A stretch of DNA of 18,720 bases from a virus (Duplodnaviria; Heunggongvirae; Uroviricota; Caudoviricetes). The position numbers and the translations under genes were made by a program. The notes under the pieces are model-generated. The model was not told where the DNA came from. It did not search any database and saw only the letters and a list, made by a program, of their open reading frames with translations. Below, one piece after another: positions 593 to 17,900 of this stretch; the stretch's first letter is position 1, and every line of letters begins with the position of its first letter. The stretch spans positions 1 through 18,720 of IMG/VR virus record IMGVR_UViG_638341086_000012, one strand, 5' to 3'.

Positions 593-786
593 AGCGACCT
601 CCCTTAACGCAGTGCTGATGTTATTCTAGGTCGTGCTGGCTATAATTCCAACTAACACTTCGTTTTAAGCGAATAGCAGATAGTCGAGTTATCATGTTAT
701 TAGCCAATAAATATACGTGGTAAAAGCTCTTTCTTCGATTTAAAATGTATCTGGATAGTAAATATCTTACGTTAAAGGAAATTGTT

Positions 787-1107
787 ATGGATTTTTTATC
801 TTCGGCGATACTTTCTGGCATAGTTTATGACATGCTTAAACATCATGTTTCGATTACTGCAACTTCAATAAAAGAAAAGTTAAAAAATTGGGTTATTGAT
901 GAGGCTGTAGCCCCTGCTTTAGCTAAAGAGCTTGAAAAACTGTCTTTGAACGATGAAATGAGTGAAATAGCAATTGAAAGAAAACTATTGGATAGTAGTG
1001 AAATTCAAAAAATACTCTCGTCTATAAAACCTCATGCAGCAACTGTCATTATTCAAAACCATAGTGGCACTGGTGATAATATTGGTGGAAATAAAATTAC
1101 GAGGTAG
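787..1107 (+). CDS. Hypothetical small protein (about 106 aa), first gene of the AT-rich cargo operon; no recognisable family
   Basis: ORF-track frame 745..1107. ATG at 787 is preferred because AAGGA at 775-779 sits 7 nt upstream; ATG at 745 has no SD. Very AT-rich relative to flanking phage genes. C-terminal motif IQNHSGTGDNIGGNKI recurs at the N-terminus of the next gene. Confidence 0.5.
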   Translation: MDFLSSAILSGIVYDMLKHHVSITATSIKEKLKNWVIDEAVAPALAKELEKLSLNDEMSEIAIERKLLDSSEIQKILSSIKPHAATVIIQNHSGTGDNIGGNKITR

Positions 1108-1112
1108 TGTCT

Positions 1113-3905
1113 ATGGATAACATTCATAGCTGCAGTTCAATTAGTCAAAATCATACCGGAACAGGCCATAATGTTGCTGGTAACTTAATTATATACAATA
1201 GTGATAATGTTGATTATGCGACTGAGTTAGCGATTGCTGTTTTAGTCGGTTGCTGGGATGAAAAAAATAATGGTGATATTGATATAATTACAAGCCTTAT
1301 TGGCGAGTCATATGACAGTTGGATTCGAAAATTAAGAATAATTGAAGGGATGCAAGATAGTCCTTTGATTCATGAGAGAGGTTCTTGGAGTTTTAAAGAT
1401 AGAATACAATCATTTCAAACGGTATCGTCAAGATTATTCGATGATCATTTGGATTTGTTTCGGACGACTGTTGTATCCGTTTTTAAAACTATCGACCCAC
1501 AATTTGAACTGGCACCTGAAGAGCGTTATGCAGCAGTAATTTATGGGAAGGTTTTACCACACAGCCGATTAATAAGGAAAGGACTATCCGAAGGGTTGGC
1601 ATTAGTTGCAACAAAGCAAGAGTTACTTACTAATTGCTCAAAATATAAAGGGCAATATTGCGCCTCAAGTGTGGTTAAAGAGGTTTTTTCGGCTTCTAGC
1701 TGGCAATTATGGGCTAGTACGCAAGATATTCAAGTTATGCTTGCGGAAAGTGCTCCTGACTGTTTTATCGACGAAGTGGAAAATGCTGCATCTCACCAAG
1801 ACAAGCCATTTGATTCACTTTTTGCACAGGAAGGTATCGGTGGTATTTCAGGTCGGAATTATATGACAGGACTGCTATGGGCTATTGAAGGATTAGCTTG
1901 GGCGCCTAACTATTTATCTCGCTCTTTAGTAATATTAGGGGAGCTGGATAGCCATGATCCTGGTGGCAATTGGGCTAACAGGCCACTTAACTCGATAATC
2001 AACATATTGTTACCATGGCTTCCTCATACTACAGCTGATATAGATAGACGTATTGCTGCTTTCAACGCATTGGCAAGGGAGTGGCCCGATACAGCATGGC
2101 GTGTTTTAGTTCAGTTGCTACCCAACAACACGCAAGTAACATCTGGCACACATATTCCAACTTTTAGAAACTTTATTCCTAACGGTTTTAATAAAAGGCC
2201 ATCGGGTGATGAGTACCGTACTCAGATTGAAATATACACTCAATTAACAATTGAATTGGCAAGTAAATCATCATTAAGACTTGTTGATTTAGTTGAAAAT
2301 ATTGGTAGATTAGCGCCATTTAAATTCGATGATGCAATTAAACTATTGTATGATTTTTCTAAAAAAACAGATAGTGCTGAATTGAAGTTAGCGGTGTGGG
2401 AAAAATGTTTAGAAGTTTATAACAAAAACAAAAGATTCTCAGGTGCTTATTGGGCAATGCAACCAGAACAAAATGAAAAAATCAAAGATGTTTCTACAGT
2501 CTTGAAGCCCGAAAATCCTATGCTTTATAGCAAGCGACTTTTTGCACAAAACAATTACTTCCTATTTGATGAAAATGGAAACTGGCGGGACCAAGAAGAA
2601 AGGTTGACAAAAGAACGAGGGCAATCAATATACGAAATATATGCTATTAATGGTATTGATGGAGTCTTAGAATTCTCTCTATCTATTGAAAGGCCTGAGT
2701 TTGTTGGTAGTAGCCTGGTCGCAGAAGATCTAGAAATTCCTTTAGATATACTGAAAAAACTTATTGTTAGTGATATTAAAAAGGAAAATTCTCTTGCTTC
2801 TGGTTATGTACAGGCTAAAAACTACAGAGAAGGAAAATCATGGGTGTTGACAGTTATTAATGACTGGAGTGCTCAAGAAAAGATTGCTTTTTTTCTTTTG
2901 TTACCGTTTAAAAAAGAAACATGGGATGCATTAAACGCTTCATTTGATGATTTTCCTTTCGAGTATTGGAAAAATACTCTTGTTAATGCATACAGCTGTG
3001 ATTCAACGGAAGAAATTTATTTTGCTATAGACTGCTTGATTAAAGTAGACCGTCCCTTGATGGCAATAGATTGTTTATCTAAAATTTTGCATATCGATAA
3101 TTCAGTTGATAGCAGTAAGGTTGTGCTTGCTCTATTGCAATCAATTAGAACCACAGAAAATATTGAGCGATTTGATATTCACTCATTTAATGAACTTGTG
3201 AATTATATTCAAAATGATAACACTGTTTCAGATGACGACTTAGTAAAGATTGAATGGGCATACCTACCTGTAATTAACAGGGGGGCTAATGATTCGTTGC
3301 ATCCTCAAGTATTAGAGAAAAAACTTGCAAGTGAACCCAGTTTTTTTTGTGAAGTCATTCAATATGCGTATCGATCAGAATTTCAAAAAGCAAGTAAAGA
3401 ACTATCTGAAAGTGAAATAAATATTGCCAAAAACTCACTCTATTTACTTGATGATTGGAAAAAGATTCCGGGTGTTGATGCTGAAGGCAAGTTTGATGTC
3501 AATGCGTTTAATAACTGGTTTGATTTTGTCCAAACAGAATGCGAAAAGTCAGGCCATTTAGATTTTGCTTATCATAGAATTGGAAGCATATTAATTTTTA
3601 GCCCTGCAAATGACGAGCATTGGATACTTCCAGAACTGGCCGAGTTTTTGAATAGACGTGAACTTGATAAAGTGCGTACTGGTTATAAGAATGCGATAAT
3701 AAATTCGCGTGGTGTCTACATTGTTGACCCAGAAGGTAAACCGGAATTGGAGTTGGCCCAACAATATCACACTAAGTCTGATGCAATGGAACTTCTAGGC
3801 TTTCATCGATTTGCCCGAATTCTTCGAGAGTTAGCTCATGAATACCAAGCGGAAGCTGAGTTGATAATAGAACAGCACAGTAAAAAAAAGATTGCTGAGA
3901 TTTAG
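1113..3905 (+). CDS. Large hypothetical protein (about 930 aa), AT-rich cargo; candidate accessory or defence protein of unknown family
   Basis: Uninterrupted 2.8-kb ORF (track 1107..3905; ATG at 1113 preceded by GAGG at 1101-1104). No Walker A, no obvious nuclease motif seen by eye. Sits between gpD and ogr, which are normally adjacent in P2, and on the opposite strand. Confidence 0.75.
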   Translation: MDNIHSCSSISQNHTGTGHNVAGNLIIYNSDNVDYATELAIAVLVGCWDEKNNGDIDIITSLIGESYDSWIRKLRIIEGMQDSPLIHERGSWSFKDRIQSFQTVSSRLFDDHLDLFRTTVVSVFKTIDPQFELAPEERYAAVIYGKVLPHSRLIRKGLSEGLALVATKQELLTNCSKYKGQYCASSVVKEVFSASSWQLWASTQDIQVMLAESAPDCFIDEVENAASHQDKPFDSLFAQEGIGGISGRNYMTGLLWAIEGLAWAPNYLSRSLVILGELDSHDPGGNWANRPLNSIINILLPWLPHTTADIDRRIAAFNALAREWPDTAWRVLVQLLPNNTQVTSGTHIPTFRNFIPNGFNKRPSGDEYRTQIEIYTQLTIELASKSSLRLVDLVENIGRLAPFKFDDAIKLLYDFSKKTDSAELKLAVWEKCLEVYNKNKRFSGAYWAMQPEQNEKIKDVSTVLKPENPMLYSKRLFAQNNYFLFDENGNWRDQEERLTKERGQSIYEIYAINGIDGVLEFSLSIERPEFVGSSLVAEDLEIPLDILKKLIVSDIKKENSLASGYVQAKNYREGKSWVLTVINDWSAQEKIAFFLLLPFKKETWDALNASFDDFPFEYWKNTLVNAYSCDSTEEIYFAIDCLIKVDRPLMAIDCLSKILHIDNSVDSSKVVLALLQSIRTTENIERFDIHSFNELVNYIQNDNTVSDDDLVKIEWAYLPVINRGANDSLHPQVLEKKLASEPSFFCEVIQYAYRSEFQKASKELSESEINIAKNSLYLLDDWKKIPGVDAEGKFDVNAFNNWFDFVQTECEKSGHLDFAYHRIGSILIFSPANDEHWILPELAEFLNRRELDKVRTGYKNAIINSRGVYIVDPEGKPELELAQQYHTKSDAMELLGFHRFARILRELAHEYQAEAELIIEQHSKKKIAEI

Positions 3906-4115: not shown

Positions 4116-5225
4116 TCACTCTGTTTCCGCTATCCATTCCGGGATTTTTGCCTCAAGCTCAAGCTGCGTGGTAAAACCGCTGTTATCAATGGTGTGCTCG
4201 GCTTTTGCAATAATCCAGTCCTGATTATCAATCTCGCTTTTAAATCCTGTTACCGTGCCATGCATTTCGGGGTAGAGTTCTGCACGTCCACGCGCCAGCG
4301 TGATGGAGAATGATGTGGCTCCGCGTTGTAGCTGCTGCCACTTTGCCGCCGCAGCGCGTCTTGCTGCCTGCTCGTTCTGATAAGTCTTGCGTAACACAAA
4401 CACATTTCCTTCCGCGCCTTCCATATAATCACCTTCACGGCTGCTGCTTTTCTCCTTTTTGGGTTTTGGCGGTTTGCGGCGTTTCACGCTGACTTTTTTC
4501 TTTTTCCCGTAATTAAGATCAAGCCAGTAGGCGCGTACCCCCGTATACGCCTCGCGGTCAGCAATACGGAACTGATGGCGATCGCCGCTGCTGCGTGTAA
4601 TGGCGAACGAGGGCAACGGCTGGCCCTGTGCGTTCACGCCACCACCTGGCATGATGAATAACAGATTGCCGCTTTTTACGGTGGTGATTGCGCCCAGCAT
4701 TTCCGCCATGCGCGTAAGAAAGGACATGTCGCTTTCTTCGGTCTGGTCGGCGTGGTCGATTTCGATATCCATCAGCATTTCGCTGATTTGCGGTTTCAGA
4801 CCATACCGATGAGCGATGGCGGATACCACACGCTCAACGGTCACATCATGCCAGGACACCTCACGTTTAACGTTAAATTCATCCCGAAAATCTGCGCTTC
4901 TGGCTGAAACAGTCAGCCTGTCCGGCGGTCCTTCGTGAGCGATTTCATCAACAATGTAAGTGCCTTTTTCTGTCAGCGGTTCTCCTTTCCAGCCAATGAG
5001 AACCGTCAGGCGCGCGCCCCGTGGCGGTAGCTGCAACTGACCATCTGCATCATCCAGCGTGATGGTGAGCTGGTCTGCTTCAAATCCCCGGTTGTCGGTC
5101 AGTGACAGGCTCATCAGGCGCTCTGCCACGCCTGACAGCGTTTTACCCTCCGCGAGAATATCAAAATCCGGCATTTTCACGGGGTCTGTGCCCTGACTGA
5201 GCAATTGCATGGTGGTGTCGGTCAT
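4116..5225 (-). CDS. D: P2 gpD-like late control / tail protein
   Basis: Translation (MPDFDILAEGKTLSGVAERLMSLSLTDNRGFEADQLTITLDDADGQ..., RLTVSARSADFR) matches P2 gpD as recalled. Start placed at ATG 5225 (MTDTTMQ...) because GGGAGGG lies 5-6 nt upstream; the ORF-track start at 5357 is an upstream extension. Confidence 0.88.
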   Translation of the reverse strand: MTDTTMQLLSQGTDPVKMPDFDILAEGKTLSGVAERLMSLSLTDNRGFEADQLTITLDDADGQLQLPPRGARLTVLIGWKGEPLTEKGTYIVDEIAHEGPPDRLTVSARSADFRDEFNVKREVSWHDVTVERVVSAIAHRYGLKPQISEMLMDIEIDHADQTEESDMSFLTRMAEMLGAITTVKSGNLLFIMPGGGVNAQGQPLPSFAITRSSGDRHQFRIADREAYTGVRAYWLDLNYGKKKKVSVKRRKPPKPKKEKSSSREGDYMEGAEGNVFVLRKTYQNEQAARRAAAAKWQQLQRGATSFSITLARGRAELYPEMHGTVTGFKSEIDNQDWIIAKAEHTIDNSGFTTQLELEAKIPEWIAETE

Positions 5226-5382
5226 CTGTTCCCTCCCTGTGCGGCATGGTCGCATGTGCGTGCAGAGGGGGGTACTGCTTTTTGTTGTCGCCGTGGCGGG
5301 AGAATGGCGCAGGAGTGAGATTACACGCGTGGTGGGTGATGATTGTTGCCGAATCATTTAACGGATACAAGGGGCTGAAGCT

Positions 5383-6567
5383 ATGAGTGAAACTCGTTTT
5401 CATGGTGCCCGTGTTACGGAAAATACCGACCTGGTAACAGCGATTAACGATGTTGATTCCAGCGTTATCGGTATCGTGGCAACGGCGGATGATGCGGACG
5501 CGAAGCTGTTCCCGCTGAACAAGCCCACACTGCTGACCCGCGTCAATGACGTGCTGGGAAAATGCGGGACAACGGGGACGCTTTATCGTGCGCTTAAGGC
5601 CATCGCAGACCAGGTGAGCACAAAGGTGATCGTCGTTCGCGTGGCTGAACACAAAGAAGAAGACGGAAAGACGCAGGATCAACTGGTTATCGGTGGTTCT
5701 GAGGATGACGGCAGCTATACGGGGATGTATGCGCTGCTTGTTGCAGAGCAGGATGAAAGCATCGGATACCGTCCGCGTATTCTGGCCGCGCCGGAGCTGG
5801 ACACGGAGGCTGTAACAAAATCCCTGTGCGTGATTGCAGGTAAACTGCGCGCGTTTGTGTATGCCTCATGTCACGGCTGTAACACGATGGCTGAGGCGAG
5901 TACCTACCGCCAGAAATTCAACGAACGTGAGGTGATGCTCTTATGGCCGGACTTCATCGCCTACAACCCAAAAAGTGGCAAAAACGAAACGTTCCCCGCG
6001 CCTGCCTATGCGTGCGGCCTTCGTGCGTACATTGACCATGAGCAGGGCTGGCACAAATCACTGTCCAACGTTCCGGTTAAAAATGTGCTGGGGATGTCGA
6101 GGCATGTGTTCTGGTCGTTGCAGGCCGAAGACAGCGATGCCAACAGCCTCAACAACAAAGAAATCACGACCATTATTCGTCGCAACGGGTTCCGCTTCTG
6201 GGGCAACCGCACACCGGAAACGAACGCCTACATCTTTGAGGTGTATACCCGAACCGCACAGGTGCTGGCTGATTCAATTGCGGAAGCGCAGTTTGAAACC
6301 ATCGACAGTCCACTGACGCCTGCGAACGTGAAGGATGTTATCAGTGCCATCAGGGCAAAACTGGATTCACTGGTTACTGCCGGGAAACTGATTGGCGCGG
6401 AGTGCTGGTATGACGTGGTGGATAACAGCACCACGAATTTATGTCAGGGGCGTGTGCGTATTCGCTACAAATATACGCCTGTTCCCCCGCTGGAAGATAT
6501 GGAGCTTTACCAGACGTTTACTGATGAATACTTTGAACCCGCATTTGCGGTGCTGGGAGGTGCCTGA
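5383..6567 (+). CDS. FI: Contractile tail sheath protein (P2 FI-like)
   Basis: 394-aa product with P2 FI-like blocks (FPLNKP, LRAF, YRQ, WPDF, DQEQGWHKSLSNV, IRRNGFRFWGNRT, YTPVPPLE). AAGGGG SD 8 nt before the ATG. Confidence 0.95.
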   Translation: MSETRFHGARVTENTDLVTAINDVDSSVIGIVATADDADAKLFPLNKPTLLTRVNDVLGKCGTTGTLYRALKAIADQVSTKVIVVRVAEHKEEDGKTQDQLVIGGSEDDGSYTGMYALLVAEQDESIGYRPRILAAPELDTEAVTKSLCVIAGKLRAFVYASCHGCNTMAEASTYRQKFNEREVMLLWPDFIAYNPKSGKNETFPAPAYACGLRAYIDHEQGWHKSLSNVPVKNVLGMSRHVFWSLQAEDSDANSLNNKEITTIIRRNGFRFWGNRTPETNAYIFEVYTRTAQVLADSIAEAQFETIDSPLTPANVKDVISAIRAKLDSLVTAGKLIGAECWYDVVDNSTTNLCQGRVRIRYKYTPVPPLEDMELYQTFTDEYFEPAFAVLGGA

Positions 6568-7079
6568 TGGCTGTGCCAAAACATCTTCGCTTTTTTACGC
6601 TGTTTGTGGATGGTGAAAACGAAGTGGGTAAGGTGACGTCCGTCACTCTGCCTAAGCTGACGCGCAAAACCGACAGCTACCGGGGTGGTGGCATGATGGG
6701 GGCGGTAAGTATTGATCTCGGTCTGGACGACTCCGCGCTTGATGCGAGTTTTGTTATGGGGGGAGCTGTTCGTGCGCTGTTCCTTAAATATGGCGGCACG
6801 ATTGACGGCACGCTGCTGCGTTTTGCGGGTGAATACTACACCGATGCAGAAAGCGATCTGTATGAAATCGAGATGCGCGGACGTGTGACGGAAATTGATA
6901 TGGGGGAAGCCAAACAGGGCGAAGCCACATCACACACTTACGCTGTCAAAAACACCTACTACAAGCTGAGCGTTAACGATCGCCCGCTGTGGGAAATCGA
7001 CCTGTTGAACCACATCTACCGGAAGGACGGCAAGGACATTGTGCCTGACCGTATCCGTTCCGCGCTTGGGCTTGGCTGA
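6567..7079 (+). CDS. FII: Tail tube protein (P2 FII-like)
   Basis: 170 aa; TLPKLTRKTDSYRGGGMMGAVSIDLG matches the P2 FII N-terminus. Start overlaps the FI stop (TGATG), and GGGAGG lies 8 nt upstream. Confidence 0.95.
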   Translation: MAVPKHLRFFTLFVDGENEVGKVTSVTLPKLTRKTDSYRGGGMMGAVSIDLGLDDSALDASFVMGGAVRALFLKYGGTIDGTLLRFAGEYYTDAESDLYEIEMRGRVTEIDMGEAKQGEATSHTYAVKNTYYKLSVNDRPLWEIDLLNHIYRKDGKDIVPDRIRSALGLG

Positions 7080-7134
7080 TAAGTAATATGCAGGCGGCGC
7101 AGTGCGTCGCCTCTGACTGAAAAGGAGACAACTG

Positions 7135-7509
7135 ATGAAAGACATCGATACTGAAACCCGGAATAACACCGTGGCGGATGATGTGACGGCAGGTGAGGAT
7201 ATGGCTGTCGAACGTGGCGTAAAACTGACCCGACCAATTGAGCGTGGTGGCGAAAAAATCACGTATGTGGAGATCACCGGGGCTATTGAACAGGCTGGAT
7301 CCCTGCGTGGTCTGTCGCTGTCTGATGTGCTGAATCTGAAAGCGGATACCATGTTCATGCTGTTGCCTCGCGTGACCTCGCCACGACTGGATGAAGTGAT
7401 GATTAAAAAAATGTCGTCACGCGATTTTATTCAGTTGTGCGCTGTGGCTGTAAATTTTATGAGCGAGCCAGACTCTGGCGCGAAGAGCGTGCAGGAGACG
7501 GCAGCGTAA
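7135..7509 (+). CDS. E: Tail assembly chaperone gpE-like (upstream frame of the E/E' pair)
   Basis: Position between tube and tape-measure genes; AAGGAG SD 7 nt upstream of ATG 7135; a -1 frame ORF overlaps its 3' end, as in P2 E/E' and lambda G/GT. Confidence 0.8.
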   Translation: MKDIDTETRNNTVADDVTAGEDMAVERGVKLTRPIERGGEKITYVEITGAIEQAGSLRGLSLSDVLNLKADTMFMLLPRVTSPRLDEVMIKKMSSRDFIQLCAVAVNFMSEPDSGAKSVQETAA

Positions 7510-7673
7510 TCACCCTAGTGTGCTTTGAGCACATCGAAGATCTGGTGGCAGATATCGCCGCCATTTTTAACTGGTCGCCCGCCGAAATCTTCATGATGAC
7601 GCCCGGCGAAGTGGTTAGCTGGCGTGAGCGGGCGGCACTTCGCAGCGGGAATGCAGACAATGAAGACTCTTGA
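7135..7673 (+). CDS. E+E': gpE+E' fusion made by programmed -1 ribosomal frameshift (coordinates span both frames)
   Basis: The -1 frame is open from 7407 to the stop at 7671-7673 and encodes ...HIEDLVADIAAIFNWSPAEIFMMTPGEVVSWRERAALRSG. Candidate slippery sites in the overlap are the A7 run at 7405-7411 and A AAT TTT at 7452-7458. Confidence 0.65.
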
Positions 7674-10467
7674 TATCCGGGTCGCTTTCAGCGCCGTTGA
7701 CAGGCTGACCCGGCCTGCCGAAAACGCCCGCCGCCTGATGGGGCAGTTTGGTGACTCCATCCAGCGAACGCAGGGGGCGATCAAAAATCTCGAGCGTCAG
7801 GCGCGTTCATTTGAGCGCGCCCGTGACGCTGTCAGTAAAGCGGATGCGGGCATCGTGAAAGCACGACGCCAGCTTAACGCCCTTAATCAGTTACAACGCA
7901 CGGGTACAGTGCTCAGCGAAAAACAACAAAAGCTGATGCAGCAGTTAAGCACCCGGCTTGAACGCCTGAATGAATCGCGCACACGGGAAATTCAGAAAAT
8001 GCGGGAGCTTGGCGGAGAACTGAAACGCCACGGCATTTCCCTGACAGGCAGCGATAACACCATTCAGCAGGCCATCAGACGCACCGAACAATACAACAAC
8101 CAGCTTGAACGCGAACGGCAGGCGCTTGCGCGTGTAACGCAGGCGCGTGAGCGGTATTCGCGCGCGCAGGAAACAGCGGGAAAACTGAAAACAGGTGGTG
8201 CGCTGGCAATTGGTGCGGCAGCGGCGGGCGGCTATGCTGCCGGGCGTTTTTTGCAGCCTGCGATCGGGTTCGGCAAAGAGATGTCCCGCGTTCAGGCACT
8301 GACGCGAATCGACAAAAACAGCCCGCAGTTTAAGGCGCTGCGTGAGCAGGCGTTAAAACTTGGCTCTGAAACACAGTTTACTGCGAGTGATGCCGCCAGT
8401 GGGCAGAGCTTTCTGGCAATGGCTGGTTTTACTCCGCAGGCCATTCAGGCCGCATTGCCCGGTGTTCTTAATATGGCGCTGGCAGGCGGCGTCGAACTCG
8501 GCGAGACGGCTGATATAGGCTCCAATATCCTCACACAGTTCAACCTGACAGCCGATCAAATGGACCGGGTGGGCGATACGCTGACAGCAGCATTTACCCG
8601 GACCAATACTGATTTACGCGCGCTGGGCGAAACCATGAAGTATACCGGTCCGGTTGCCGCAAAACTTGGTATCAGTCTTGAAGAAGCGGCGGCCATGGCC
8701 GGGATGCTTGCCAATAATGGTCTTCGCGGAAGCGATGCTGGCACGGCCATGCGCGCAAGTCTGTCCCGCCTTGCATCACCGCCAAAAGCTGCGGCTGATG
8801 CACTGAAAGAGCTGGGGGTGTCAGTTGCTGACGCCAGAGGCAAAATGCGCCCGATGGAGGATGTGCTGCTTGATCTCTATAAGGCGACACAAAAATACGG
8901 ACAGGTGGACCAGGTCTCCTTCTTCAAGGACATCGCCGGAGAAGAGGCGTTCGTTGGTTTGCAGACGCTTGTTGCGGCGGCTGGTTCAGGAGAGCTGCAA
9001 AAACTGACCAGAGAATTGCAGGGGGCAAGGGGAGAGGCCGATCGCGTTGCAAAAGTAATGGCCGATAATCTTGATGGGGACCTGAAAAATCTCGACAGCG
9101 CATGGGAAGGTCTTCGTATTCGCATCAGTGATCTGGTTGACGGTCCGCTGCGTTCTGTCACGCAGTGGCTCACGCGGATGCTTGAAAAAATCACCTCGCT
9201 GGCGCAGGCCCATCCGGTACTGACGCGCCAGCTACTGATAGCAGGCGGTGCGTTGCTGGCAATGACTGCAACGATTGGCTCGTTGTCGCTGGTTATTGGG
9301 GTGCTTTACGGGAAGCTGGCCACCTTGCGTATTGGTTTTGACATTCTTACCCGGTCAATGAATGTCGTCAGGGTGTTGCCTGCGCTATGGGGAATGGTGA
9401 CGGGTTCCGTTTCTTTACTGGGAGGCGCTATCGGGGCGTTGTTCAGTCCGGTTGGTCTTGTCGTTGCTGCGCTTGCCGGAGCTGCCGTTCTTATCTGGAA
9501 ATACTGGGATCCCATCAGGGCATTTTTTGCCGGGGTGTTCAGCGGGATTATGGAAAGGCTGACCCCGTTGCGCGAAACCTTTGAACGGTTTGGTCCTGTT
9601 TTTGACGCAATCGGAAGCGGGATCAGCCAGGTGTTTAACTGGTTTAAATCGCTGCTGTCACCGATGGAGTCCAGCAAGGAAACGCTGGATAAATGTACCA
9701 GTGCTGGCGAGATATTCGGTAACGTTCTTGGTGGAGCGTTACAGCTTGTTCTGACGCCTGCAAAAATGTTGCTGGATACGCTGGCGTGGATACTTGAAAA
9801 ACTCGGTGTGCTTCCGGATGAAGCGGAAAGGGCGCGCAAGAAAATCGAAGACGCACAGCGTGCGGCCATTCTTCAGGACAAGGTTGCTCTGTTTCAGGGA
9901 GACATTGCGAAAATCAATCCGCCAAAGCCTGTAGAAAATGGCAATGGCACCGGAGGTGATAAACCCAAAGACAATAAACCGCTCACAGACAGCAATATCG
10001 GTACGCTGCGCAGACTAAGCAAAATTGCTGATAACACAGGTAAGCTGGTTGATGAGACGAAAAAACGCATTGGCCCCGGCGATATTGTCTTTAAGAACCT
10101 GCCCCGCGCACTTGCTGTTCGTGGGGAGTGGCAGGAGCGGAAGATTGCGCAGGTCAGTAAGCCTGCCCCCGCAATTAATATCACCCCCGTGGTTCCGGCT
10201 CCGCTGCCTCCGGCGCTGGTCCCTGTTGTTGCGGCCAGCACCCGCCCGGTGGCGGAGGCCATACGATCACCAGTAGCATCAGTGCCTGCAACTTCCCGTA
10301 ACCGGGAGCCTGTTGCCTCCGGATTTGGTGGTGAAATTCATGTTCATCTGCATAACGTTGTTACGCAGAATCCCCACGAACTGGCGAAACTGGTCGGTGA
10401 AATGGTCAGGGCAGAAATGGAACGGCGCGCCCGTGCCGGGCGTGGCAGTTTTTACGATAAAGATTGA
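7660..10467 (+). CDS. T: Tail tape measure protein (P2 gpT-like)
   Basis: About 935 aa, coiled-coil-rich N-terminal part, central hydrophobic glycine-rich segments, Pro/Ala-rich C-terminal part; immediately follows E/E'. Start uncertain: ATG 7651 or 7660 (ORF-track frame opens at 7624). Confidence 0.9.
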   Translation: MKTLDIRVAFSAVDRLTRPAENARRLMGQFGDSIQRTQGAIKNLERQARSFERARDAVSKADAGIVKARRQLNALNQLQRTGTVLSEKQQKLMQQLSTRLERLNESRTREIQKMRELGGELKRHGISLTGSDNTIQQAIRRTEQYNNQLERERQALARVTQARERYSRAQETAGKLKTGGALAIGAAAAGGYAAGRFLQPAIGFGKEMSRVQALTRIDKNSPQFKALREQALKLGSETQFTASDAASGQSFLAMAGFTPQAIQAALPGVLNMALAGGVELGETADIGSNILTQFNLTADQMDRVGDTLTAAFTRTNTDLRALGETMKYTGPVAAKLGISLEEAAAMAGMLANNGLRGSDAGTAMRASLSRLASPPKAAADALKELGVSVADARGKMRPMEDVLLDLYKATQKYGQVDQVSFFKDIAGEEAFVGLQTLVAAAGSGELQKLTRELQGARGEADRVAKVMADNLDGDLKNLDSAWEGLRIRISDLVDGPLRSVTQWLTRMLEKITSLAQAHPVLTRQLLIAGGALLAMTATIGSLSLVIGVLYGKLATLRIGFDILTRSMNVVRVLPALWGMVTGSVSLLGGAIGALFSPVGLVVAALAGAAVLIWKYWDPIRAFFAGVFSGIMERLTPLRETFERFGPVFDAIGSGISQVFNWFKSLLSPMESSKETLDKCTSAGEIFGNVLGGALQLVLTPAKMLLDTLAWILEKLGVLPDEAERARKKIEDAQRAAILQDKVALFQGDIAKINPPKPVENGNGTGGDKPKDNKPLTDSNIGTLRRLSKIADNTGKLVDETKKRIGPGDIVFKNLPRALAVRGEWQERKIAQVSKPAPAINITPVVPAPLPPALVPVVAASTRPVAEAIRSPVASVPATSRNREPVASGFGGEIHVHLHNVVTQNPHELAKLVGEMVRAEMERRARAGRGSFYDKD

Positions 10468-10479
10468 GGAGTCATGGCC

Positions 10480-10968
10480 ATGATGATGATCTACGGCATG
10501 TTTGTTTTTGAGCTGCGTACGTTGCCGCATCAGCAGTTACAGCAAAACAAAAGCTGGCGGCATGTGAAAAATGAACGCGTTAACCGTTCAGCAAGCTGGC
10601 AGTATATCGGTGCAGGTGATGATCGCATCGTTCTTTCTGGTGTGCTTTATCCTGAAATTACAGGTGGTGAAGTGTCGCTGTCGCTGCTGACCACGCAGGC
10701 GTATACAGGACGCCCCTGGCCTCTGATTGATGGCGTCGGGCAGATTTACGGCATGTATGTCCTGACCGGAACGAATACGACCCGTTCCGAGTTTGATCGC
10801 TACGGTAAGGCGAAAAAGATAGAATTTTCACTGACTCTTGAACGCTGTGATGAGGATTTGCGGGAGCGCCTGCAATCCTCATCGTTCAGCGATATGTTGT
10901 CCGGCTTCAAAGATAAGGTGACATCATCCCTTAATAGTGCGGCCAGCTCAGTTAAGGGGCTGCTCTGA
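10480..10968 (+). CDS. U: Tail protein gpU-like
   Basis: MMMIYGMFVFELRTLPHQQLQQ...WRHVKNERVNR parallels P2 gpU (MMMVLGLFVFMLRT...). GAGGAG at 10466-10471 favours ATG 10480 over the ORF-track ATG 10474. Confidence 0.9.
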   Translation: MMMIYGMFVFELRTLPHQQLQQNKSWRHVKNERVNRSASWQYIGAGDDRIVLSGVLYPEITGGEVSLSLLTTQAYTGRPWPLIDGVGQIYGMYVLTGTNTTRSEFDRYGKAKKIEFSLTLERCDEDLRERLQSSSFSDMLSGFKDKVTSSLNSAASSVKGLL

Positions 10969-11044
10969 TTTAACGTATGTCGCCAATTTCCTGATGAAGG
11001 TGACTGGCGACTTGCTGTTGTATGTCCTTCTCAGAAAATTGTTT

Positions 11045-11073
11045 TTGAATAACAAATAACAGGATTTTATAAT
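11045..11073 (+). promoter_or_regulatory. Near-consensus sigma70-type promoter for the acetyltransferase cargo gene
   Basis: TTGAAT (11045-11050), 17-bp spacer, TATAAT (11068-11073); then AAGGAG (11113-11118) and GTG start at 11125. Confidence 0.5.
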
Positions 11074-11124
11074 CTCTTAACCTTATAACATGTGTGGTCT
11101 GAAATAATAATTAAGGAGATTTTC

Positions 11125-11697
11125 GTGCTGTCTTACTTAATGGCAATTCACTTTGTTTTATTTGGGAAGTCTACTAATTTAAAAAACTTCTGGAAACATG
11201 AAGTAATTCGGCGAAAACGTATGGATATCTGGAGGCTTTTAAGAGAGAAAAAGCAGCGTAACCGGAATTTCCTTTTCTGGTGGCGGTTGGCTAACGAAAT
11301 GTATATTAATGGTAATAAATTACATAAGAAAGCAGCCAAAAAGTTAAACAGTAAAATAATTAACAAATTTGGTTGTGAAATAGGATTGGGAGCAAATATT
11401 GGAAAAGGGTTAACAATTCCCCATCATGCTGGAATTGTTGTTCATTTTGCTGTTGATGCGGGTGAAAATCTGGTATTACGACAGAATACTACCATTGGAC
11501 AGATAGATGGTGACATGCCTGGTTCAAGAGTGAAAATTGGTAGTAACGTTGATATCGGAGCTAATTGTTGCATCATTGGATTGTCACGTAAAATTGGGGA
11601 TAATGTAAAAATAGGTGCAATGTCTTTTATAAATAAAGATATACCATCAAACTGCACATATATAACTAAAAAGAGTGGTGTTGTATTGTATAAATAG
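11125..11697 (+). CDS. Hexapeptide-repeat (left-handed beta-helix) acyl/acetyltransferase, CysE/WcaB/LacA-like; AT-rich cargo gene
   Basis: Repeated [LIV]-G-x-x-x-x hexapeptide pattern (IGLGANIGKGLTIPHHAGIVV, KIGSNVDIGANCCIIG, KIGDNVKIGAMSFI). Strongly AT-rich versus neighbours. ORF-track frame opens at 11092; GTG 11125 is chosen for its SD. Confidence 0.75.
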   Translation: MLSYLMAIHFVLFGKSTNLKNFWKHEVIRRKRMDIWRLLREKKQRNRNFLFWWRLANEMYINGNKLHKKAAKKLNSKIINKFGCEIGLGANIGKGLTIPHHAGIVVHFAVDAGENLVLRQNTTIGQIDGDMPGSRVKIGSNVDIGANCCIIGLSRKIGDNVKIGAMSFINKDIPSNCTYITKKSGVVLYK

Positions 11698-11704
11698 AGT
11701 ACAT

Positions 11705-11745
11705 AAAGCCATCGATATTTCTGTCGATGGCTTTTTCTTTTTATT
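11705..11745 (+). terminator. Rho-independent terminator after the acetyltransferase gene; the same hairpin lies just past the stop of gene G on the other strand
   Basis: Perfect 11-bp stem AAAGCCATCGA (11705-11715) / TCGATGGCTTT (11724-11734), 8-nt loop, followed by TTTTTCTTTTTATT on the plus strand. Confidence 0.65.
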
Positions 11746-12325
11746 GTGGGGCGACTGGCCACTCAACATCCGCTGCTACTGTTGTATCAACACGATTCAA
11801 CAATACCCGATATGTCTTCCATGCAGCCAGTAACGATGCCTCTTCCTCCGTCGCAATATCCAAATCTACGGCATCCTGAAGTGGCGCAATATGCTCACTG
11901 GCTACCTGCATCAGGCTGTTTTTTGTTTCTTCTGCCTCCTGTACCCGAAACAGTTTTTCTGCTTCTGCATCTTTCACCCAGGATGTGCCGTTCCACTTCT
12001 GACACTCTCCATCCGGCGACAACCAGGTAACATTTTCCGGTAACGGACCGAGTTCAGAAATAAATAACGCGTCCCCTGATGCCACGTCATAAACAGTTTT
12101 ACCCCGATGGTCTTCAACGAGATGCCACGATGCCTCATCACTGTTGAAAACAGCCACGAAGCCAGCCGGAATATCTGGTGGTGCAATATCGGTACTGTTT
12201 GCAGGCAGACCTGTATGAGGTGGAATGTATGCATCACCTTCCCCAATAAATTCATTAGTTCCGGTCAGCAGGTTATAAATTTTTATGGTCCGTGATTGTT
12301 CACTCATTCTGAAATCCATGTTCAC
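11741..12325 (-). CDS. G: Tail fibre assembly protein / chaperone (gpG/Tfa family)
   Basis: C-terminus ...[34 protein letters not shown] is the conserved Tfa C-terminal signature as recalled; about 190 aa. GTG at 12325 or ATG at 12319. Confidence 0.85.
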
Positions 12326-12327
12326 CT

Positions 12328-13230
12328 CTACTTAATATCAGAGACAGAATATTGTTTATTGAGCGTATGGGTAGGAGTACCAATAACGATGCTACTTCCG
12401 TGGCTATGTGCGCCAGAGGTGACATTACCTACGGGATTTTCTGGATTAATCCGGTGTATATGCGAACCAGGGCGAAAACGGTTATTAGCCTGATGTTGTA
12501 TCAGTACATCATCAGCCTGATGTTCAGGGTTAATACAGATTTGCCCGGAACGAGAGCAACACGTCCGATAATCGCCGCATCCAATATATTTAGTATCCGC
12601 ATAACGGCAAACGGAATTACCCGGACAGTATGCATATGTGCCAAATACTGCCGACTGGCGAGATTGTGCGTATTCCCAGTTAATTGATTCTGTTTTTTTA
12701 TTAAAGTTATCCCATGCCTGCTTCATCTGTCGGGCAACACTTTCAAACGGCACCTGACCACATCCGGCCCCCATTGCAGGGAATACCACTGTTTTTATTT
12801 TCATGTCTGTCGTTGCGTTTTTATTGTGCTGAAAGATGGCAAGCAGAGCGGCCCAGGTTGCGTTATATACAGCGTCTGTTCCGTCAATTGTCAACGGAAC
12901 ACGCATTGTTGGCGCATGTACCAGCCAGGGGTGATGATTATGCCCCGTTTCAATGACAAATGCAGAACCTACAGGCTGTTCGCCGAGATATTCACGAAGA
13001 ATATGATTCTGAACGCGGGACTGTAACTGAGTACCGAAGAATGCGGTAATGGCGGCATCAACGCCACCATCCATCAGGCCGAAACTATTTGCCGCACTTA
13101 CCATGCAGTCAAATTCTCTGATTGTTTCAAATGGCTTTCCGACAATATTCACACTATCTGCATTTGCAAATACCTGCTTAAATGCTTCAGCCATTTCTGT
13201 TACTGGTGCAGAAAGAATGAGCGTAATCAT
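12328..13230 (-). CDS. Macro-domain (ADP-ribose-binding / hydrolase fold) protein with a Cys/His-rich C-terminal extension, inserted between H and G
   Basis: Macro-domain motif blocks seen by eye: [60 protein letters not shown]-terminal 120 aa contain CPGNSVC...[16 protein letters not shown] and His-rich [11 protein letters not shown] overlaps the H stop (ATGA at 13227-13230); GAGG SD 5 nt upstream; stop 3 nt before the G start. Confidence 0.8.
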
Positions 13231-15053
13231 GCAAGCCTCACAATATAGTTAAATGCGATGTTTTTTACGGTGTTTTCTGCGTTACCCGTAGCGTTAACGG
13301 TGATGGTATGCCCGTGTGAACCTATCGCAACGGAGTGTGTGTGTGCGCCAATTCCTACCGTATGAGTGTGTGCGCCAATATTTACTGTGTGAGAGTGCCC
13401 CCCTGCGTTACTTGTTTTTCCAGTGCCAAGTCCTGAGTTATAACCAGCCGAAACACCATTACCTGCGCCAGTGTTGCCAACAGGAATATTGTGTGAATGA
13501 TCCCCGGCGCTATTCGTGGTTTTAGTGCCATGGTTAAATGAACTGGACGTCTTGGTGCCGTAGTCAAATGATGATGTGGTTTTTGTCCCCAAGTCCGTAC
13601 TGGACGCGCTGGCACTGTGGGAGTGTGATTTAATGCCGTCCTGTTCCTGAGATAATACGGCCCGACCACTGGCGGGTTTGCCCTTAATCGTCCAGCCACG
13701 CATATCAGGGATCACACCAGACGGATAAGCGACTGCAAGCAGGGGATAGACTGTTTTATCAAAAGTCTGCCCCTGCATAACGGTATAGCCTGTAGGCACT
13801 GAATCAGAAGGCCACGGTATCGCCGCACCTACCGGAAATGAATCTTGTGGCGTCCATGGTGTCCAGTCACCCGTTGAGTACTGGCTGCGGGTATAGCTTC
13901 TGGATGTGTCATACACATAGTAAATCTGTGTTATCCCGGCATTTTTAAGCACAACCAGTGTACCCGCAAAATTCTCCGGGTATTTCAGCGCTGCGCTTGT
14001 ATTGGCATTCAATGGCTGATGGTACAGCCCCGGTGTTTTGTAATTATCCAGATTCTGATTTGCACCAATCTCAATACTCTGGTCGTTAAAAATATCCTGC
14101 GATGTAACATTGACATCATTGGCTAGTGATTTGCCATTAACCTTACGTCCAGAGGGCACACGCCCGTTTGCATTGTCATTAGCGGCTTTCACCGCTTTCG
14201 GAGTCGCGGCAAGCGTTTCAGAATCACTGTTAGTGACGCTACTGAGCTGGACTATTCCTTTTCGTGCCGTCGTGGCGTCCTGTGCGGTATATTTCCCGTT
14301 AGCAAGGTCATAGGCTGCCTTTACCGCCTTTGGTGTTGCCGCCAGCGTTTCTGAATCGCTGTTGGTGGCGCTACTGAGCTGGGCTATTCCTTTTTGTGCC
14401 GTCGTGGCATCCTGAGCGGTATATTTCCCGTTAGCAAGGTCATAGGCTGTCTTGACCGCTTTCGGCGTTGCGGCCAGTGCTTCAGACGTGCTGTTAGTGG
14501 CGCTACTGAGTTGAACAAAGCCTTTTGCGGTCAGCGAGGCGTCCGGGTGACGTCGTGACTGTTCATGTTCTTTCAGTTTGTCATTCACGTAATCCACTGT
14601 GGCCATCACCATGGTGTTATCCACGGTAAGCGCCACGGTGGCAGTGCTGGATACGGTCAGAATGGTGCGAAATGTTTGTGCACGTCCGGACCCCTCGGCA
14701 ACGGTTGGTTTGTAACTTTCGGCAGTATTGCCCACCGCGATTAAATCGCCGTGCTCATCAAATACACCAATTTCCCGGATCCAGAATCCACCCGTTTCAG
14801 GAGGAATAACCAGCTCCGCAATAATGCGGTTCTGATGTGTTGCGTCCAGGATGACGCGATTAACAGTATGTCGCCACACCTCATGCACCAGACGGGTCTG
14901 CTTACTGTCTGGTGTGGGCAACGTGCCGCCACCGTCGCCCACGGCCATGTGAGTCAGGCGGACAGGATTACCATCTGGCGCGGCTGCCTGAGCTAATTTT
15001 TTGGCACCAGTATCAGTGATAATGGTTTTAAATTTACGTGTTGTGGTACTCAT
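13227..15053 (-). CDS. H: Tail fibre protein (P2 gpH-like)
   Basis: N-terminus [26 protein letters not shown]...MAVGDGGG...HEVWRH...[10 protein letters not shown] matches P2 gpH; internal [36 protein letters not shown] repeats; C-terminal HxH-rich tip ([33 protein letters not shown]) ending [11 protein letters not shown]. Confidence 0.95.
14160..14528 (-). repeat. About 2.8 tandem copies of a 132-bp (44-aa) coding repeat inside tail fibre gene H
   Basis: DNA segment containing ...ggtatatttcccgttagcaaggtcataggctg... recurs with a 132-bp offset (14286 vs 14418). Encodes KG(F/I)[40 protein letters not shown](Q/R). Confidence 0.85.

Positions 15054-16478: not shown

Positions 16479-17900
<1,422 letters not shown>

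Follow-up and report, generated by a model that had tools for sequence, protein, structure and literature searches.

Temperate phages carry integral-membrane acetyltransferases that act on the O antigen, among them Oac of Sf6, the O157-modifying enzyme of PhiV10 and the OafA/GtrC family, and prophage CUS-3 of Escherichia coli carries NeuO. NeuO, which O-acetylates the polysialic acid of the K1 strain type of E. coli, is soluble, phage-borne and of the hexapeptide-repeat kind; it acts on a glycan at the surface of the lysogen and is the closest functional precedent for the gene considered here (PMC7387560). We analysed an 18,720-nt stretch of DNA, IMG/VR record IMGVR_UViG_638341086_000012 (the window, to whose positions all coordinates refer; Table 1), in which a small AT-rich acetyltransferase gene stands between the tail genes of a P2-like prophage. 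The gene is of a known kind, a moron coding for a glycan acetyltransferase and a fairly ordinary lysogenic-conversion gene; our best reading, which we hold with about even confidence, is that it codes for an O-acetyltransferase directed at lipopolysaccharide (LPS) and serves lysogenic conversion.

The logic we propose is that of the Oac, PhiV10 and OafA type, in which the lysogen expresses a prophage gene whose product acetylates LPS and keeps the same or related phages from adsorbing. Those enzymes, however, are multi-pass membrane proteins of the acyltransferase-3 class with an unrelated fold, acting on the O antigen at the periplasmic side, whereas the window protein has no predicted transmembrane segment and must act in the cytoplasm. 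It has no close similarity to NeuO, and no tandem repeats (5' heptanucleotide, phase variation) were found. The positional counterpart is fun(Z) of P2, a lysogenic-conversion gene that is non-essential, is separately transcribed and lies in the same slot and orientation, right after G and convergent with it. The Fun(Z) protein is unrelated (528 aa); it blocks T5 and confers sensitivity to fluorodeoxyuridine (FUdR).

The protein has the fold of a serine acetyltransferase but falls short of every curated family of that subgroup. Many NCBIfam left-handed beta-helix (LbH) matches and the predicted fold place it in the hexapeptide-repeat superfamily, in keeping with the original prediction of a soluble beta-helix acetyltransferase; the Pfam Hexapep score is 24 bits, slightly under the cut-off of 27. 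The AlphaFold2 monomer model (predicted local distance difference test score, pLDDT, 79.9) comprises five N-terminal helices followed by the beta-helix, and its fold neighbours are serine acetyltransferases. Sub-classification by homology and structure search, which the original prediction had suggested, led to the CysE/WcaB/EpsC subgroup without reaching any of its cut-offs. The best-scoring family is the EpsC profile NF041874, which covers residues 48-180 (N-terminal helix and beta-helix) at 75.8 bits against a cut-off of 150; the CysE profile TIGR01172 gives 61.7 bits against 210.65, the PRK11132/NF008349 profile 36.8 against 397, and the WcaB profiles 53.6-54.4 against 194.65-196, the gene lying in a prophage and not in the wca cluster. 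E. coli CysE itself matches at only 30.7 bits. PHROG 2154, a family with no assigned function, is matched at E = 2.5e-87.

HMMER alignments set E85 and H100 against the catalytic pair D143/H158 of CysE; within the family H100 shows at least 90% conservation, and most relatives have D at position 85. The L-serine-binding residues of CysE, which we take to be D157, R192 and H193 in E. coli numbering, are not kept: D157 aligns with P99 in a variable column, R192 with R135, a residue that the family does not conserve, and H193 with nothing. The beta-helix comes after about 82 residues, where CysE chains of 267-293 aa have about 140; the N-domain is some 60 residues shorter. The C-terminus (...GVVLYK), variable among family members in both length and sequence, has no CysK-binding tail. 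The family has invariant residues of its own (R54 in the FLFWWRLA helix, Q120 and N121 in RQNTTIG), the isoelectric point of the window protein is 10.2, and its gene is found on mobile elements, not in cys or wca operons. The ratio of nonsynonymous to synonymous substitution (dN/dS) is 0.06-0.18 against four diverged copies and the O157 copy, indicating purifying selection. On the strength of the sub-threshold profiles, the residues and the dN/dS values, the product is, as judged from its sequence, a functional enzyme of serine-acetyltransferase fold that is not CysE, WcaB, EpsC or NeuO, and we read it as a soluble, basic O-acetyltransferase that is probably a trimer and would use acetyl-CoA, enzymes of the superfamily being acyl-CoA-dependent homotrimers whose active sites lie where subunits meet. 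A fragment of a housekeeping cysE, the origin that the original prediction had set against itself, is excluded by the TIGR01172 score (62 against 210 bits), the CysE match, the lost serine-binding residues and the purifying selection.

The same data bear on two readings of the gene as a metabolic or resistance enzyme. Databases name the product a serine acetyltransferase, which would make it an auxiliary metabolic gene boosting cysteine synthesis; the profile scores and the weak CysE match, the non-conserved serine-binding residues, the short N-domain and the missing CysK-binding tail all argue against this, and we regard it as highly improbable. Acetylation of antibiotics or other xenobiotics by an enzyme of the Vat or CatB type, which the original prediction had entertained, draws on the fact that such enzymes are also hexapeptide-repeat trimers on mobile elements. 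It found no support, with no Vat or CatB family among the 28 NCBIfam matches at E <= 1, fold neighbours of the serine-acetyltransferase kind and no link to resistance gene arrays in the loci examined, and is the least probable reading of all. Both are excluded as far as sequence allows.

What the enzyme acetylates is suggested by the neighbours of its relatives. In Leminorella grimontii, a 48% identical relative belongs to a core-LPS (waa) operon with the order glycosyltransferase family 4 (GT4), WaaP, GT4, GT8, WaaY, an MptE/Maf-like gene and the acetyltransferase, with WaaL convergent. In a Xenorhabdus prophage (50%) the gene after the acetyltransferase is for a GT25 LPS glycosyltransferase, and the two face the fibre gene; a Morganella prophage (47%) has hicAB, the acetyltransferase and a GT9 heptosyltransferase-family gene, again facing a fibre gene. 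On viral contig L170 (62%) the acetyltransferase gene is separated by an HtrL_YibB gene and then a DUF1353 gene from the Tfa and fibre genes, which are on the opposite strand. Because four independent lineages have four different LPS-type neighbours, we propose LPS, probably its core, as the acceptor. Another case is the Def4 prophage remnant of Salmonella, in which a 54% identical relative comes after the fibre and Tfa genes, with gtr genes for O-antigen glucosylation on the far side of this fibre module. These loci lend support to the surface-glycan modification envisaged by the original prediction. A screen of S. Typhimurium deletion mutants scored both STM4197 and STM4204 as "reduced swarming only" (PMC4219756); STM4197 is taken to be the 54% homologue, an assignment made by consecutive locus numbering only, and STM4204, a membrane protein encoded in the same islet directly after a bactoprenol glucosyltransferase (gtrB-like) gene, is probably gtrC.

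The main alternative leaves chemistry and purpose unchanged and has a different envelope polysaccharide as the target, whether a K capsule, colanic acid, enterobacterial common antigen or a serotype-specific O-unit sugar. WcaB, the colanic acid enzyme, and EpsC are among the best family matches (54 and 76 bits), relatives in Pseudomonas (43%) and Halomonas (51%) sit in polysaccharide clusters beside GT2 or uridine diphosphate (UDP)-sugar dehydrogenase genes, as in O-antigen or exopolysaccharide clusters, and NeuO shows that a phage-borne beta-helix enzyme can O-acetylate a capsule (PMC7387560). A scan of species-representative genomes returned mostly distant polysaccharide-cluster enzymes of other phyla and orphan genes, with the first 13 or so loci informative. 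We consider this alternative unlikely.

The second main observation is that the gene travels with tfa and the fibre tip. Of 5,426 complete E. coli genomes, at least 509, O157:H7 included, have at least 80% of positions 10900-11800, with the gene intact, and P1-like phage-plasmids carry the same gene at 88-91% protein identity. In the P1-like phage-plasmid JL22 it lies between U and tfa, adjoining cin, between two alternative sets of fibre-tip and assembly genes. Positions 11133-12313 of the window align with JL22 as one block of 91.8% DNA identity that comprises the acetyltransferase gene, the terminator and tfa; the homology then resumes over 13223-13836 against the 3' end of the JL22 stf gene (81%), skipping the macro-domain open reading frame (ORF). 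Within a family set of 117 ORFs from phage records, IMG/VR and genomes, which fall into 37 clusters at 90% identity, a Tfa gene is convergent with the acetyltransferase gene and within 100 bp of it in 12 clusters, and 0.6-3.5 kb away in three more. Among the 12 are relatives with no more than 35-47% identity (Citrobacter phiNP, Hafnia yong2 and the IMG/VR contigs L182-184), and the convergent pairing is seen again in relatives of 35-70% identity. Acetyltransferase and Tfa identities co-vary, with a rho of 0.86 over 1,378 non-independent pairs from an all-against-all search. A Buttiauxella copy directly faces a tail-fibre gene; other copies stand at the ends of prophages or islets, adjoining integrases, hok or hicAB. 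Far from being confined to this prophage, the gene moves with tfa and the fibre tip among phages of P2-like, P1-like and other types.

That the gene constantly adjoins tfa, whatever the phage type, and the position of the JL22 copy beside cin and between alternative fibre-tip sets, could also mean that the enzyme has a role in the virion, modifying or maturing the tail fibre or Tfa or being needed for fibre assembly. The gene is nevertheless convergent with the late fibre operon and outside it, with its own sigma70-type promoter-like site and terminator; it is kept under purifying selection in remnants that have lost heads and lysis genes, most tfa/fibre modules do without it, and it is also found on non-phage plasmids and in waa operons. 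We judge a virion role to be very unlikely. The macro-domain ORF was considered as a deacetylase partner and rejected: acetyltransferase, tfa and macro-domain gene occur together in only 24 genomes, against about 509 with the acetyltransferase, and JL22 lacks the macro-domain gene. The 24 complete E. coli genomes that have both genes include O157:H7.

Beyond phages, paralogues of about 50-56% identity are found on IncI-gamma/K plasmids and on bfp-type IncF plasmids of enteropathogenic E. coli (EPEC), and 491 plasmid records match in all. One paralogue of 51-53% identity (L104, 6983-7570) is on the bfp-type IncF plasmid pF8704-2_3 of the very strain that matches the window; another of the same identity (L105, 5983-6570), on an IncI-gamma/K1 plasmid, lies in the repA-yacAB...yagA accessory region of IncI-complex conjugative plasmids. 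Two papers mention the gene, and neither assigns it a function. The JL22 paper describes the reason for carrying it as unknown (PMC9603915) and the phiNP paper lists it merely as a "fitness" gene (PMC6456863); our searches returned nothing relevant on the acetyltransferase in connection with P2 hotspots or defence, or on an IncI1 serine acetyltransferase, and no experimental study of the gene.

Taken together, we propose that the enzyme modifies LPS in the following way. Transcription in the lysogen would start at the gene's own sigma70 promoter, even where the prophage is defective, and would stop at the hairpin shared by the two convergent genes. The product would fold like a serine acetyltransferase or WcaB, with a short helical N-domain and then the left-handed beta-helix, and as a cytoplasmic trimer would use acetyl-CoA, with general-base catalysis by H100 and E85. 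Its acceptor would be an LPS sugar, most likely in the core oligosaccharide or a lipid-linked LPS precursor, which would receive the O-acetyl group while LPS is assembled on the cytoplasmic side of the inner membrane. Once exported, the altered surface, which LPS-binding tail fibres and other adhesins recognise, would be bound less well by fibres of the co-inherited type and by other LPS-dependent phages, and the outcome would be lysogenic conversion and superinfection exclusion matched to the inherited fibre-tip/Tfa module.

A number of observations weigh against this proposal. The LPS-enzyme neighbours belong to relatives that are 47-62% identical and not to the window gene, and many relatives are orphans or plasmid-borne with no LPS gene nearby. 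Co-variation of acetyltransferase and Tfa is expected for any two co-inherited neighbouring genes, and the pairs behind the rho of 0.86 are non-independent. A query of acetyltransferase, tfa and macro-domain gene matches 4,681 of the 5,426 genomes, mostly through its tfa part, against about 509 with the acetyltransferase; since close tfa homologues are present in most genomes, the acetyltransferase is optional for the fibre module. Among the entries listed in O157:H7 proteome tables, CysE is present and the acetyltransferase is not. As far as we know, E. coli has no described core with O-acetyl groups, and the receptor of this fibre type could be a porin instead of LPS.

A bolder form of the proposal, which we put forward as a speculation and consider rather unlikely, is a "bind-and-mask" cassette: one recombination event would bring a new fibre tip, its Tfa and an enzyme that O-acetylates the receptor of that tip, the LPS core. 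The paralogues on IncI-complex and bfp-type plasmids would act likewise against LPS-binding pilus adhesins, and O-acetylation of the LPS core would be a widespread exclusion mechanism of mobile elements in the Enterobacterales, overlooked because standard analysis of core structure strips O-acyl groups.

The anatomy of the cassette is that of an independent transcription unit, and the elements on which the original prediction had based its autonomous architecture are all in place: the TTGAAT-17-TATAAT site, a strong Shine-Dalgarno sequence, the perfect 11-bp stem of the terminator and an AT-rich composition. The coding sequence (CDS) has a GC content of 0.344 and the interval 11030-11745 one of 0.330; U, G and T have 0.503, 0.475 and 0.558. 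The RefSeq CDS is identical (573 nt), and the P1-like copy has ATG at the start position. The terminator stem pairs 11705-11715 with 11724-11734, is extendable to 13 pairs and is followed by a T run to about 11744; its fold of -18.8 kcal/mol has a z of -4.8, and none of 200 shuffles folded as well. The 10/12 promoter match alone is weak evidence, since the site is the best of five in 2 kb of AT-rich DNA in which 4.4 are expected by chance. Both hexamers are, however, invariant in all 47 P2-type copies for which upstream sequence was available, with substitutions in the spacer and at downstream positions, and this invariance, together with what is kept in an E. coli relative, L086, gives the promoter reading more weight.

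In L086 the promoter, the 5' untranslated region and the terminator are nearly identical to those of the window, the promoter-like site and the terminator sequence being the same, and yet the protein is only 70% identical. Comparison over 11020-11124 and 11700-11745 indicated that the first 14 and last 14 codons are near-identical too, the central coding part being about 70% identical at the protein level. This mosaic suggests that alleles have been replaced within a fixed regulatory shell. The upstream region of JL22 is unlike that of the window, the DNA homology beginning at the start codon, and has a TTGACA-18-TAAAAT site of its own. With a promoter-like site and a terminator, a deviant composition and an insertion between conserved phage genes, the gene has the marks of a moron, and we read it as independently transcribed cargo in the fun(Z) slot. 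The cargo of the slot differs among relatives. L086 has an extra methyltransferase cassette, its 5617-6605 region running from the acetyltransferase through an 87-aa Tfa fragment and a class I S-adenosylmethionine (SAM) methyltransferase cassette to a full Tfa gene, a layout that suggests repeated insertion through recombination within tfa.

The slot assignment rests on the order of genes in the prophage. The window matches E. coli O39:NM F8704-2 with 100% identity; there it is the remnant of a defective P2-like prophage, with ihfA on one side and btuC on the other. The remnant runs hok, ogr (-), an AT-rich gapS6a pair (+), D (-), FI-FII-E-E'-T-U (+), the acetyltransferase gene (+), G (-), the macro-domain gene (-), and H, I, J and a truncated W (-). 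P2 itself has G(+), fun(Z)(-), FI...U, D and ogr(+), without inversion of FI-U. The FI-FII-E-E'-T-U block (within window 4116-10968) is thus inverted relative to P2, D and ogr keeping the orientation of the fibre operon, and D and FI are divergent here from a 25-bp gap (5357/5383). Given the inversion and the gene order of P2, the acetyltransferase gene occupies the exact position of fun(Z), directly after G and convergent with it. The original prediction of a gene between U and G was right as to location, but the adjacency to U is a by-product of the inversion; its description of foreign cargo reading against the G-H-I-J fibre operon agrees with the convergent arrangement we find. The same layout is present in a more complete P2-like prophage of O157:H7 adjoining a tRNA-Leu gene (L186; probably CP-933T of EDL933), in L086 and in other E. 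coli, so that the inversion is a trait of the lineage and not an assembly artefact.

Position in a slot shared with fun(Z), which blocks T5, in a cargo hotspot of P2-like phages, suggests another reading, in which the enzyme serves intracellular defence or counter-defence against phages or plasmids by acetylating a small molecule, a nucleotide-sugar or a component of the invader. In the interval from ogr to D the prophage has another AT-rich cargo island, with the annotation GapS6a, relatives often adjoin hicAB, hok or Abi genes, and the gene is widespread on conjugative plasmids. A search of PADLOC-DB 2.0 returned no family at E <= 1, though, and the product, one small enzyme, lacks any partner that could act as sensor or effector. 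The tight linkage and co-divergence are with tfa and not with the hotspot as such, and homologues are embedded in LPS and polysaccharide biosynthesis operons. We regard a defence role as unlikely, on a par with acetylation of another envelope polysaccharide, and retain the LPS-directed enzyme as the preferred reading.

The remaining features of the window are collected in Table 1. The second cargo island, which lies in another P2 cargo slot, probably holds a two-gene anti-phage system of the GAPS6 type; its 932-aa protein has no Pfam match and the GapS6a pair no PADLOC match. The G/tfa gene is about 90% identical to tfaQ and tfaR of K-12. An Rfam scan of the window matched IS009 and isrC only, with no RNA element within 11045-11745.

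Table 1. Coordinates of the acetyltransferase cassette and of other features of the window
Feature	Position	Strand	Remarks
sigma70 promoter-like site, TTGAAT-17-TATAAT	11045..11073	+	10 of 12 positions match; putative promoter
Shine-Dalgarno sequence, AAGGAG	11113..11118	+	6 nt 5' of GTG 11125; conserved in L086
Acetyltransferase CDS	11125..11697	+	190 aa, GTG start; RefSeq WP_000954197 "serine acetyltransferase"; PHROG 2154
Intrinsic terminator	11705..11744	+	hairpin 11705-11734 and T tract, between the stop codons of the convergent acetyltransferase and G genes
gpU	10474-10968	+	PF06995 Phage_P2_GpU
gpG/Tfa, tail fibre assembly	11741-12325	-	PF02413 Caudo_TAP, E = 1.2e-40
Macro-domain protein	12328-13230	-	300 aa, between H and G; PF01661, E = 9.5e-19; PHROG 2613
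Tail fibre gene H, C-terminal (distal) part	13227..13836	-	part of the exchanged module
Second AT-rich cargo island	745-3905	+	ogr-D interval, GC 0.36; 120-aa HetE-N domain protein (RefSeq: GapS6a) and 932-aa protein
IS009 (Rfam RF02111)	11778-11976	-	within the 3' part of the G/tfa CDS; 194 bits, gathering score 117
isrC (Rfam RF01387), Hfq-binding small RNA	16719-16841	+	150 bits, gathering score 39; at the truncated-W end of the remnant; overlaps ORFs 16479-16751 (-) and 16687-17034 (+)

Relative to the literature searched, what is new is this family, its fixed pairing with Tfa across P2-like, P1-like and other myovirus backbones, and the lead to the LPS core. The gene is intact in about one in 11 complete E. 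coli genomes as well as in P1-like phage-plasmids, and its paralogues are on hundreds of conjugative and virulence plasmids, under a database name, "serine acetyltransferase", that the comparison with CysE does not bear out. The fixed linkage to tfa offers a simple genomic marker of the exchange of receptor modules between unrelated phage families. If the enzyme does acetylate LPS, phage susceptibility and surface antigenicity would commonly depend on it, as might the susceptibility of recipients to conjugation, and it would bear on the host range of phages used in therapy, on phage typing and on engineered tail fibres.

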